Source: a virus (lineage: Duplodnaviria; Heunggongvirae; Uroviricota; Caudoviricetes). From it: DNA of 3,555 nt. Shown piece after piece: positions 934 through 3,555 of the stretch. The stretch lies in the IMG/VR virus record IMGVR_UViG_2529292921_000021. One strand, given 5' to 3'. Both the position numbers and the translations under genes were made by a program. The notes under the pieces were generated by a model. The model was given only the letters and a program-made list of their open reading frames with translations. It was not told the DNA's origin and made no database searches. Every line of letters starts with the position of its first letter. Within the stretch, counting starts at the first letter, position 1.

Positions 934-1067
934 CAATATTTTCCTCCCGCGCTAAAGATCACATAATCTTAACAAGAATGTTAAAAAACGCTGGACTCAG
1001 ACAGTAGAGTGTGTGTTATGGTTGACTATAAAGTCAGCGAAGGGAATGCTTCTGGCTTTTAACAGAT

Positions 1068-1100
1068 AAAAAGAGACCGAACACGATTCCTGTTTTCGTC
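1068..1100 (-). ncRNA. sdsR: 3'-terminal remnant of the SdsR/RyeB small RNA (terminator hairpin plus U-tract); probable junction/att core of the inserted element
   Basis: The - strand of 1068..1100 reads GACGAAAACAGGAAUCGUGUUCGGUCUCUUUUU. This matches, with about 3 differences, the 3' end of SdsR as I remember it (GACCGAAUACAGGAAUCGUAUUCGGUCUCUUUUU). The position (about 130 bp beyond the pphA start, same strand as pphA) fits the known pphA-sdsR/ryeA-yebY arrangement. The sequence on the 5' side of the RNA (coordinates above 1100) does not resemble the SdsR body, so only a fragment is present. Identification is from memory. Confidence 0.35.
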
Positions 1101-1397
1101 AACAAACAATAAACCCTTTTTAAATTAATTTGTTAAGCAAAATTACGCTCATCTTTTAATCCCAAACACGTACCATTGCATATTAATGCATTCAATTAGT
1201 TACCATTTTTTTCGAGTTTTTTAGAGAAAATTTCGGGACTATTTCAGACCAATCCAGGCAGAAATAAGCAATCCCTATATTGAATGATTCCGCAACAATT
1301 ATGTAAAATCACCTCCGGCTGATTTTCATTCAAACTCGCGCTATCGAACGTCCATCAGCCAGCCGTGGCACGTTCTTGCATACGACGTGCTACGGTT

Positions 1398-1951
1398 TCA
1401 TTTATCTCCGACCGGAAACTTCTTATACAAAGTCGATACGCCAACATCATAAATGATCGCCACCTTCTGGCGAGGAACTCCTGATGCAATTAGTCGCCCG
1501 GCCTGCGCCCATTGTTCTGGTGAAAGTTTGGGACGGCGACCGCCAATTCGTCCCTGTGCGCGAGCAGCTTCCAGTCCAGCTTTTGTTCGTTCAACAATCA
1601 GTTCACGCTCCATTTCAGCCAGGGCCCCATCACATGAAAGAAAAAGCGCCCCATTGGGGTACTGGTATCAATTGAATCCGTCAGACTACGAAAGTTGATG
1701 CCTCGTTCGCGCAACTCCTCCACCAGCACGACAAGATGCCGCATACTGCGCCCCAGTCGGTCCAGTTTCCAGACCACCAGCGTATCACCTGCCGATAATG
1801 TCCTGAGCAGTTTTTTCAGTCCCGGCCTTTCGGACTTTGTACCGCTTATCTTGTCTTCAAAAATCAGCTCGCATCCTGCACAGTTCAGCGCATTACGTTG
1901 TAGATCTGTGTTCTGGTCATTTGTTGACACACGTACATAGCCAATAAGCAT
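1398..1951 (-). pseudogene. pin: Gin/Pin/Hin/Cin-family serine DNA invertase, disrupted by a 1-nt frameshift in a G/C homopolymer at about 1622..1628
   Basis: Two adjacent - strand ORFs (1598..1987 and 1398..1613) in different frames together give a full invertase. The N-terminal part is MLIGYVRVSTNDQ... (catalytic Ser in the YVRVS motif) ...MGRFFFHVMG, then frame is lost (PWLKWSVN*). The second frame continues (A)LAEMERELIVERT...GRIGGRRPKL...YDVGVSTLYKK, the helix-turn-helix C-terminus. From 1398 to 1951 is 554 nt, one short of 555 (184 aa plus stop). The true start is the ATG at 1949..1951, with GGGGGA 7 nt upstream; the extra 12 codons in the ORF track are an artefact of an upstream in-frame ATG. 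Confidence 0.8.
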
Positions 1952-1977: not shown

Positions 1978-2550
1978 ATGATGCCATTTGCTCGTTATTT
2001 CTGCATTTTCATAAACGTTGGTTTGGGAGAAGGTGCTCCAGCTATTGGCGTTCCGTTCTTCTGGCCGTCCGCCGCAATGCCAAATACTGTAATCGACAGT
2101 TGGTCCAGCATGGTGTTTTTGAAGTTCAACGGCGCGAAATTCTCTGCCACTGATTACCCTGTGCTGGCGAAAGTGTTTCCGGCGCTGGCATTACCTGACG
2201 CACGCGGTGATTTCATTCGTATCTGGGATGACGGACGCGGGATTGATGTCGGACGTACCCTACTTTCAGGGCAATCACACACAATTATGGATCATGCACA
2301 CAATATGGAATTGTGGACGGGGGACGGGCTTGTCGCAGGAAGTACACGGGAAGGAGTAAACCCAGGAATACTGGCTACATATGGTGACGGGGGAATAGTT
2401 AAAACGGACGAACCCGGTCTTAGGGTGCCTTCCTCACTACGAGCTATTAGCTCTCGTAGCGTTAAACGTTATGGTGAAATTAGTGGAAATGTAGGTACAG
2501 AAACCCGCCCACGAAATATTGCATTTAACTTTCTAGTGAGGGCTAAATAA
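1978..2550 (+). CDS. Tail-fibre C-terminal variable cassette (alternative receptor-binding end, Sv'-like); probably not an independent gene in this orientation
   Basis: 190-aa ORF; the frame is open from 1957, directly after a TAG. It contains a phage tail-collar-type motif (...FNGAKFSATDYPVLAKVFPALALPDARGDFIRIWDDGRG...; LPDARGDF at 2191..2214). There is no convincing ribosome-binding site at the correct spacing (AGGA is only 2 nt before the ATG). It begins at the candidate crossover site and is followed, with a TAATG overlap, by a tail-fibre assembly gene, as stfE/tfaE are in e14. Confidence 0.65.
   Translation: MMPFARYFCIFINVGLGEGAPAIGVPFFWPSAAMPNTVIDSWSSMVFLKFNGAKFSATDYPVLAKVFPALALPDARGDFIRIWDDGRGIDVGRTLLSGQSHTIMDHAHNMELWTGDGLVAGSTREGVNPGILATYGDGGIVKTDEPGLRVPSSLRAISSRSVKRYGEISGNVGTETRPRNIAFNFLVRAK
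2006..2031. other. Candidate invertase crossover site (gix/hix/cix-like 26-bp imperfect palindrome) marking the proximal boundary of the invertible segment
   Basis: TTTTCATAAACGTTGGTTTGGGAGAA agrees with the Mu gixL site as I recall it (TTCCTGTAAACCGAGGTTTTGGATAA) at 18 of 26 positions, including the AAAC / GGTTT arms around a central dinucleotide. It lies 55-80 bp from the invertase start and inside the first codons of the tail-fibre cassette, where such sites sit in Mu, P1 and e14. The match is to remembered consensus sequences only. Confidence 0.4.
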
Positions 2551-3143
2551 TGAAACCTGTTTTTGATGAAAATGGGCTGGCTACAGTACCGGGTAATATG
2601 CGTTGTTTTTATTATGAGGCAGTTACGTATGAATATACTGGCTGGTCTGATGAATATATTAATACTGGCGTAAGTATGCCCGCTTGTTCCACTGGTATTG
2701 ACCCGGGCGAATACATTCCGGGAAGAGTGGCAGTATTTACGGGTAAGGGATGGAGCCATGAAGAAGACCACCGCAATGAGACTGTTTACTCAATCGAAAA
2801 TGGCGCAGCTGTTACAGTGGATTATATCGGTGCCATCAAAGACGGTTATGTCACGCTTTCACCGTTAACGCCATACGATAAATGGGATGGTGAGAAATGG
2901 GTGACGGATACCGAGGCACAGCATAGCGCCGCAGTAGAAGCGGCAGAAGCACAGCGCCAGTCGCTGATTGATGCTGCAATGGCTTCCATCAGTCTGATTC
3001 AAATGAAATTACAGGCTGGGCGGAAGCTGACGCAGCCAGAAAACACCCGACTTAACGCTGTGCTGGATTACATTGACGCGGTGACGGCAACAGATACCAG
3101 CACAGCGCCGGACGTCATCTGGCCTGAACTGCCGGAGGCGTAG
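2550..3143 (+). CDS. Tail-fibre assembly protein (Tfa / Mu U / P2 G family)
   Basis: 197-aa ORF whose start overlaps the stop of the upstream cassette by 1 nt (TAATG), with GAGGG 9-13 nt upstream. The C-terminus (...LDYIDAVTATDTSTAPDVIWPELPEA) carries the conserved Tfa C-terminal motif (DTSxAPDxxWPxxP) remembered from TfaE/TfaR, Mu U and P2 G. Confidence 0.85.
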   Translation: MKPVFDENGLATVPGNMRCFYYEAVTYEYTGWSDEYINTGVSMPACSTGIDPGEYIPGRVAVFTGKGWSHEEDHRNETVYSIENGAAVTVDYIGAIKDGYVTLSPLTPYDKWDGEKWVTDTEAQHSAAVEAAEAQRQSLIDAAMASISLIQMKLQAGRKLTQPENTRLNAVLDYIDAVTATDTSTAPDVIWPELPEA

Positions 3144-3555
3144 GCCATTCAATATCTGGCGCACCGGAAGTATCGACCAGTTCCAGTGCGTCCAGATAAT
3201 CCAGCCACAAATTATATTGCGCCAGTTCCTCACCTTTCAGCCGGCCAATAGCCGCTTTACCAGGCCATTGTTTACTGTTCATATAATCGTTGGCCTGATT
3301 AATCAGTTGCTGCTTTTCCAGTTCGGCTGCAGCAATCTGTTCCTCATGTGTTGGTGGTGGAATTTCAGACCATGCAGGAAAACCATTTTCTCCAGCGATA
3401 CGGATTTTTCCTTTCGGCGGTAATCCGGAAAACTCAATATACACTTGCTCATCAACTTCAACAGCATCATCTGGCCATGAGTCAGCTTGAGTGTAATCCT
3501 CTTTCATCTCCAGCGGATAGAAAGAGTTTGTAGTCGCGGAATATATGTAATTCAT
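3115..3555 (-). CDS. Tail-fibre assembly protein (Tfa family), second copy, convergent with the first
   Basis: 146-aa - strand ORF starting at the ATG at 3553..3555 (the last three bases of the window) and ending at 3115. The C-terminus (...LDYLDALELVDTSGAPDIEWPTPPAVQAR) has the same Tfa motif. It overlaps the 3' end of the + strand tfa by 29 bp. Its ribosome-binding site and the expected upstream tail-fibre gene lie outside the window. Confidence 0.85.
   Translation of the reverse strand: MNYIYSATTNSFYPLEMKEDYTQADSWPDDAVEVDEQVYIEFSGLPPKGKIRIAGENGFPAWSEIPPPTHEEQIAAAELEKQQLINQANDYMNSKQWPGKAAIGRLKGEELAQYNLWLDYLDALELVDTSGAPDIEWPTPPAVQAR

Follow-up and report, generated by a model that had tools for sequence, protein, structure and literature searches.

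Next to the phosphatase gene pphA, one Escherichia coli draft assembly carries what looks like the end of the small RNA gene sdsR (ryeB) followed by phage DNA, which raises the question of how the two came to be joined and where the sRNA and its antisense partner RyeA are now. A preliminary description placed foreign DNA inside the SdsR terminator hairpin. The stretch analysed, called here the window, comprises 3,555 bases and is an exact piece of contig AIEW01000031.1 of assembly GCA_000249075.2. This contig extends only 378 bp past the window, and the far junction was thus viewed in relatives. Positions 1063-1100 very probably represent the integrase-distal junction, or attR by the lambda convention, between the chromosome and a temperate phage integrated at an attB formed by the sdsR/ryeB terminator, because collinearity with K-12 ends at 1098, an intact attP lies beside int, both junctions are found in relatives and the two junctions are equally frequent.

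Gene content of the window

The window carries, in order, yebW, pphA, a 460-bp non-coding stretch, a split pin gene, a tail-fibre cassette and two tail-fibre assembly genes.

1-276, + strand: yebW (DUF1482 family), chromosomal flank; open reading frame, Pfam DUF1482 (E=3e-35), annotated as yebW in relatives
277-936, - strand: pphA, serine/threonine phosphatase 1, chromosomal; open reading frame, Pfam Metallophos, annotated as pphA in relatives
1398-1987, - strand: pin-type serine DNA invertase, frameshifted; two open reading frames with Resolvase and HTH_7 domains, aligned with the intact pinE of AH19B041
1978-2550, + strand: alternative tail-fibre C-terminal cassette, promoterless; open reading frame annotated as partial phage tail protein in relatives
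2550-3143, + strand: tail-fibre assembly protein; Pfam Caudo_TAP (E=4.6e-27)
3115-3555, - strand: second tail-fibre assembly protein, convergent with the first; Pfam Caudo_TAP (E=8.4e-38)

The cassette at 1978-2550, for which a Pfam search returned no match, is silent in its present orientation. The G+C content falls to 28-34% at 1100-1299, against 39-50% in the flanks. The window begins precisely at the ATG of the 91-aa yebW frame, a start base shared by many IMG/VR provirus contigs, which suggests that automatic calling placed the provirus limits at this host gene and not at the true att site near 1090.

The sdsR remnant at the breakpoint

Compared with the empty pphA-yebY region of K-12 DH1, the window is collinear from yebW/pphA through 1098 and unalignable beyond, so that the uninserted reference does not continue past the junction. 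In the pphA-yebY intergenic part up to 1098, the differences from K-12 are G/A at 1046 and T/A at 1094; at the breakpoint, GGTCCAGGG in K-12 corresponds to TCAACAAAC in the window. The 3′ end of SdsR in K-12 (where Rfam scores reach 114 bits for SdsR and 175 bits for RyeA) maps to window position 1068 on the - strand, and the Rfam RyeA model starts at 1064 on the + strand.

1066-1098, - strand: 3′ remnant of SdsR/RyeB, made of the U-tract, the terminator 3′ arm, the loop and phage sequence mimicking part of the 5′ arm; matches K-12 at every base but 1094, Rfam 24.1 bits, no hairpin

The K-12 alignment and Rfam agree with the original observation that about the last 30 nt of SdsR lie beside pphA: the portion left is the final ~31 nt. 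These take in the U-tract, the loop and both arms, the 3′ arm as GTGTTCGGTC and the 5′ arm in altered form, reading GACGAAAAC in place of the expected GACCGAAUAC at 1094-1102 on the - strand. The body of the sRNA was likewise correctly described as replaced by unrelated AT-rich DNA and then by phage genes, here those of the invertase and tail fibre. When covariance models were run with permissive thresholds, only the terminal hairpin was matched. The SdsR match (RF00111) is partial, with 24.1 bits for a gathering score of 38, the RyeA match (RF00101) is partial as well, with 28.5 bits for a gathering score of 37, and the hairpin region is the only confident part of both alignments. Further Rfam matches in the window, to snR91 and to the xanthine riboswitch, were dismissed as chance-level.

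The suspicion that this copy might neither fold nor terminate was borne out. The hybrid sequence has a minimum free energy of -5.8 kcal/mol (z +0.37), meaning that the hairpin is absent, versus -15.8 kcal/mol (z -3.1) in K-12, and a terminator scan of the window did not detect it. The fragment is consequently no member of the SdsR/RyeB family, failing both the gathering score and the formation of a terminator hairpin, nor of SraC/RyeA, for which it fails on score, body and terminator.

The phage attP and the partner junction

The DNA right of the breakpoint corresponds to one arm of a phage attachment site.

1099-1400, no strand: AT-rich, integrase-distal attP arm (equivalent of the lambda P arm), 28-34% G+C; 91% identical to PP818812, present in 228 E. 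coli genomes and most of 37 IMG/VR contigs

In the phage record PP818812, an intact attP is formed by int, a 140-bp arm, AAAAAAAGACCGAATACGATTCCTGTTTTCGTC and then the homologue of window 1099-1390, which is 91% identical to this non-coding region just downstream of the integrase gene. The attP form was also found in four IMG/VR contigs (L018, L021, L025 and L027); the other IMG/VR contigs fetched by the junction pattern have the window form, in which the left arm is chromosomal. Two marks of an att junction are thereby observed, collinear sequence giving way to unrelated sequence and a matching attP in a phage genome. PP818812.1 (L005) is labelled ‘Actinobacillus phage vB_Apl-pPE4’, with Actinobacillus pleuropneumoniae as host. 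The phage encodes an integrase that shares 98% identity with those of E. coli prophages, and its attP mimics an sdsR terminator of the enterobacterial kind; the host label looks doubtful. Two other IMG/VR contigs, L019 and L035, share the phage arm and the crossover point. Their chromosomal arm and pphA region are only ~83-85% identical to E. coli, so these contigs come from another species, and the att module is used in at least one further species.

The partner junction was seen in strain CDE6306, which matches window 937-1400 at 99.8% and carries a prophage of ~40.6 kb between pphA and yebY. Its genes for tail, head, lysis and replication and its recET genes come first, and the series closes with an Exc-family excisionase and, adjoining yebY, a tyrosine integrase. 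The 390-bp interval between int and yebY contains a complete SdsR (118 bits) and a match to the RyeA model (180 bits). The core at this junction, TTAAAAAAAGACCGAATACGATTCCTGTATTCGGTCC, is phage-type in its left part (with the bases AAAAAAAGACCGAATACG) and chromosomal-type in its right part, and the rebuilt hairpin (-15.8 kcal/mol, z -3.4) is as good as the wild type and is recognised as a terminator. The partner junction thus carries an imperfect direct repeat of the core beside int and xis. Such a second junction, with core repeat, integrase and excisionase, was seen in both CDE6306 and CS6L; the latter had been considered as a different occupant of the site but proved to be of the same phage type. 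The earlier prediction that an intact sdsR should sit near an integrase at the other end of the element therefore holds in relatives with the same junction (in CDE6306, ~40.6 kb away, with xis and int), from which an intact sdsR and an integrase would be expected in the window's own strain too. In annotation, 1066-1098 should be entered not as an sRNA gene but as a piece of sdsR displaced at the attR junction of a prophage, and the functional sdsR should be sought at the integrase end.

The crossover interval

Junctions in IMG/VR contigs and in two complete genomes were compared at the two bases that distinguish chromosome from phage.

1083-1093, no strand: interval necessarily holding the integrase strand exchanges, ACGATTCCTGT; flanking diagnostic bases 1082 and 1094

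At 1082, K-12, the window and every window-type junction have C, the five attP copies have T or A, and the far junction of CDE6306 has T. Base 1094 is T in the window, in all window-type junctions and in attP, and A in K-12 and at the far junction. Since 1082 is bacterial and 1094 is phage, both strand exchanges fall within 1083-1093. The location of the junction inside the terminator is thereby upheld, but the extent first given to the chromosomal part has to be shortened: with the mismatch at 1094, the bacterial origin covers only 1066/1068 to the crossover, and 1094 onward is phage sequence that resembles the terminator.

The core homology spans ~34 bp (1065-1098) with two mismatches. The 7-nt hairpin loop, GATTCCT, occupies 1086-1092, to which the crossover interval adds the closing pairs. 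The interval is located 16-28 nt from the SdsR 3′ end (1066-1068) and is internal to ryeA, in line with the ryeB hot spot as summarised in PMC7380047, where insertions fall inside ryeA and in the final ~23 bp of ryeB. On the model of lambda Int, the loop would be the overlap region and the hairpin arms the inverted core-type binding sites.

A model of the event can be proposed on this basis. A lambda-family tyrosine integrase recombined the phage attP with a chromosomal attB, namely the Rho-independent terminator of sdsR/ryeB, which doubles as the hairpin at the 5′ end of the antisense ryeA. In the attP, a stretch of ~34 bp imitates this terminator, and strand exchange took place in or beside the 7-nt loop, where the arms would be bound as inverted core-type sites. 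A 3′ arm and a U-tract come with the phage, and sdsR is thereby rebuilt intact at the integrase-proximal junction, ~40 kb off beside yebY. The leftover in the window consists of the U-tract, 3′ arm and loop of the chromosome, to which an imperfect 5′ arm from the phage is attached, and it is unable to form the hairpin. The exact cleavage positions and the binding of the arms by the integrase are presumed to follow the lambda example.

The integrase and its arm sites

The integrase possesses the three domains of the lambda type, for arm binding, the central region and catalysis (Arm-DNA-bind_1, Phage_int_M and Phage_integrase). It is 38-41% identical to lambda and HK022 Int and, as in these phages, an excisionase gene (here of the Exc family) lies upstream of int and attP directly downstream. 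Two candidate arm sites were found in the window.

1209-1216, + strand: candidate arm-type integrase site, TTTTCGAG, at +121 from the core centre
1230-1237, + strand: candidate arm-type integrase site, ATTTCGGG, at +142 from the core centre

The motif (A/T)TT(T/C)CG(A/G)G has two matches in the window versus 0.5 expected, which is weak alone and not significant within the window, where 17 of 200 shuffles attain two matches. The block 1206-1243, which holds both sites, is almost invariant over 34 distinct arms, and the offsets are the same in four attP copies (L005, L018, L021 and L027). On the integrase side, the TTTCGRG motif is repeated in tandem, with three copies at -84, -73 and -63, beside integrases that are 98%, 73% and 50% identical. 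Arm-type repeats are hence present as in an att junction, and the integrase probably binds the TTTCGRG repeats.

The 73%-identical integrase is that of the Salmonella phage ZC-S1_prp (core GACCGAATACGATTCCTGTTTACGG) and the 50%-identical integrase that of the Flyfo siphovirus Tbat2_3 from bat faeces (core GACCGAATACCAATCCTGTTTATTG), both with the same motif and offsets. Because this arrangement is shared beside such distant integrases, they form a clade specialised on the sdsR terminator, with cores that vary in the loop. The overall layout resembles that of lambda and HK022, with three tandem int-proximal arm repeats, two spaced distal ones ~120-140 bp out and a core built as an inverted repeat round a short central region. 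It differs in the core and arm sequences themselves, in its target, an sRNA terminator versus the gal-bio intergenic site, and in its longer core homology (~34 bp, two mismatches), which recreates a working RNA hairpin and thereby restores the target gene.

A second half-core, AAAAAAGACCGGAATAC, is found in the integrase-proximal arm, ~95 bp from the real core and directly adjoining the first arm repeat. It is located at 21132-21152 of L003, is also present in L005, L046 and L047, and is conserved in the phages with 98%, 73% and 50% identical integrases. This half-core could serve the integrase as an additional site or be a relic.

Occupancy of the site and relation to known integration systems

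The unbroken site was found in 5,191 of 5,426 complete E. coli genomes, the window-type junction in 228 and the integrase-side junction in 228 as well. The site is hence occupied in ~4% of these genomes, nearly always by phages sharing the att module; ~7 occupied genomes have no window-type junction. An exact-pattern scan for the junction in contigs representing one genome per species gave no match, a result that is uninformative on spread across species.

The ryeB terminator has reportedly been described as an attachment site for phages and islands in Salmonella enterica by Balbontin, Figueroa-Bossi, Casadesus and Bossi (J Bacteriol, 2008). The claim that the ryeA/ryeB locus is an insertion hot spot is sustained by the summary of this 2008 work in PMC7380047. 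According to that article, the att site of PhiW104 falls in the final 23 bp of ryeB, a position inside ryeA, and integration preserves ryeB and deprives ryeA of its 5′ part and promoter. The attachment site is treated as established in PMC7380047, PMC3333887 and PMC3603311, the last presenting it as a known phage target, and ‘RyeB’ serves as the site label for a Citrobacter prophage (PMC10111431). The junction is therefore a known kind of event at an already known site, and the observation is correct but ordinary.

The present case and PhiW104, as PMC7380047 describes it, have the ryeB terminator as a common target, and ZC-S1_prp, with its 73%-identical integrase, has the same core, GACCGAATACGATTCCTG. 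They differ in that the host here is E. coli and the neighbour gene pphA. A further difference is the mosaic make-up of the phage, which combines a Rac-like early region (recET, kilR, ydaT) with structural genes of the contractile-tail type and a tail fibre invertible by Pin. The elements that integrate at the 3′ end of tRNA and tmRNA genes (P4 at leuX, P22 at thrW, islands at ssrA; Williams 2002) likewise use the symmetric stem-loop of a conserved small-RNA gene as attB, restore the gene with an element-borne 3′ end and leave a displaced fragment at the other junction. Unlike theirs, the target here is a regulatory sRNA terminator common to two antisense genes, so that restoring SdsR necessarily truncates RyeA. 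What is added here is the crossover interval, the intact attP, an arm-site layout conserved over a clade of 50-98% identical integrases and the probable uncoupling of pphA from sdsR. The locus also offers a clean E. coli example of a terminator hairpin used as a phage attB with restoration of the target gene.

The edge of the att module

At the end of the phage arm, the non-coding stretch closes with a second hairpin.

1361-1397, + strand: strong hairpin (-21.5 kcal/mol, z -3.6) with a U-rich tail (UUUCAUUUAU); immediately follows the pin stop codon on the - strand

This hairpin is likely a terminator at the edge of the att module. It partially matches the 3′ end of the Shigella sRNA family CssrB, with 31.7 bits for a gathering score of 76, and the surrounding 1292-1400 shares 77-81% identity with non-coding DNA of HK97, HK106, phi80 and lambda. 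A role as a sib/tI retroregulator of int was considered and rejected: the HK97 annotation puts sib just before the homologous stretch, and 1361-1397 is therefore called only a terminator-like hairpin. In the adjoining pin gene, a single-base deletion near 1625 changes ATGGGTGCC to ATGGG-GCC relative to the intact pinE of AH19B041 and splits the gene into the Resolvase and HTH_7 open reading frames. The deletion could reflect real decay or an error of the draft assembly.

Probable consequences for ryeA, sdsR and pphA

SdsR and RyeA behave as a toxin-antitoxin-like sRNA pair. Insertion at their common terminator leaves the beginning of ryeA on the pphA side.

1014-1093, + strand: ryeA (sraC) -10 element TGtTATGGT (1014-1022), start at ~1027 +/- 2 and first ~57-67 nt of RyeA; coordinates of PMC6610125 mapped via K-12

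A sigma70 scan of the window did not pick up the ryeA promoter, and its position is taken from published coordinates, in which the promoter fragment spans sdsR +341 to +132 and RyeA measures 261-270 nt, with 3′ ends at +261 to +270 (PMC6610125). The -10 element appears to be of the extended type. The window would thus keep the sigma70 promoter of ryeA and the first ~57-67 nt of RyeA, fused to phage DNA. The body of ryeA and all of sdsR would lie at the far junction, where RyeA would be deprived of its own promoter and of these ~57-67 nt. Both RNAs had been said to be affected, which is right, but unequally so: the SdsR sequence is restored at the far junction and RyeA is cut. A sigma70-like site, TTTGCA-16-TACAAT, lies in the integrase-proximal arm (L003, 21189-21216) and is directed into the body of ryeA; its scan score does not exceed the chance level. 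This weak promoter-like site could drive a phage-dependent RyeA variant in lysogens.

Transcription of ryeA interferes with sdsR, and pphA is transcribed mainly via read-through from the sdsR promoter (PMC6610125). From these two facts, a lysogen should have less RyeA, more SdsR and a pphA gene uncoupled from its main promoter: ryeA, having lost its body, would be unable to interfere with sdsR, and pphA would be severed from the sdsR promoter. In Salmonella, PhiW104 lysogeny was reported to lower ryeA and to raise ryeB (PMC7380047).

Tentatively, and with less than even confidence, lysogeny via this integrase clade might act as a regulatory switch on three host genes simultaneously, with sdsR freed of the ryeA promoter, the RyeA 5′ end driven by the phage and pphA cut off. 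Removal of the convergent ryeA promoter would lift antisense control and transcriptional interference from the toxic, sigmaS-dependent SdsR, and pphA would be left behind a dead terminator facing the prophage end. The release of SdsR is the part reported for Salmonella PhiW104; the effect on pphA and the phage promoter are proposed here. With SdsR/RyeA acting as a toxin-antitoxin-like pair and pphA relying on sdsR read-through, stationary-phase regulation is probably not the same in lysogens at this site as in non-lysogens.

Alternative explanations

An origin by illegitimate recombination, IS activity or deletion, or a derived state of the K-12 arrangement, would have nothing specific in its favour apart from the window alone displaying a single junction, and it is effectively refuted. 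The same-base junction recurs in 228 genomes and in most of the 37 viral contigs, two of them from another species, phage genomes contain the matching attP, and the partner junction is an imperfect core repeat beside int and xis; in addition, neither the list of open reading frames nor a Pfam search of the window revealed an IS sequence at the junction. If the attR is site-specific, it might still belong to a decaying, non-inducible prophage remnant, possibly without integrase or rebuilt sdsR at its other end. The splitting of pin by a 1-nt deletion is consistent with such decay, as are the mosaic genes right of 1400 among relatives (CDE6306 has no pin) and the failure to find a sequence identical to the window among 5,426 complete E. 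coli genomes and 37 IMG/VR contigs, where the best match to the whole 3.5 kb reaches ~96-98%. However, the deletion may be a sequencing error of the draft assembly; AH19B041 and CDE6306, the nearest relatives that share the junction, have full head, tail, lysis, replication and int/xis sets; and the equal frequency of the two junction types (228 each) implies that loss of one end is apparently rare. A remnant is hence considered rather unlikely.

The hybrid leftover might also have gained a function of its own, either as a chimeric ~370-nt RNA transcribed from the ryeA promoter or through read-through from the prophage end (pin strand) across the broken terminator into pphA, which would stand in for the transcription lost from the sdsR promoter. 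The ryeA promoter and start are intact at ~1014-1027, the + strand hairpin with its U-rich tail at 1361-1397 could form the RNA end, the - strand hairpin upstream of pphA is lost and pphA normally relies on read-through from the sdsR promoter (PMC6610125). Against this stand the purely deductive nature of the proposal, the - strand fold of 1352-1412 (-18 kcal/mol), which may still hinder pin-side transcripts, and the conservation of 1099-1400, which is sufficiently explained by its role as an att arm, making such a function quite improbable. The att junction of a temperate phage at the sdsR terminator thus remains the preferred reading.

The invertible tail-fibre segment

The right part of the window contains the left border of an invertible segment.

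2006-2031, no strand: 26-bp invertase crossover site, TTTTCATAAACGTTGGTTTGGGAGAA, left inverted repeat of the invertible tail-fibre segment; inverted partner 1.86 kb off in AH19B041

In AH19B041, the two copies of this site are at 22007-22032 and 23865-23890 (L004). Contig AIEW01000031.1 (L043) terminates in ...GCTTCTCCCAA, the first 9 nt of the inverted copy of the crossover site, so the assembly broke inside the right repeat of the ~1.9-kb invertible tail-fibre segment.
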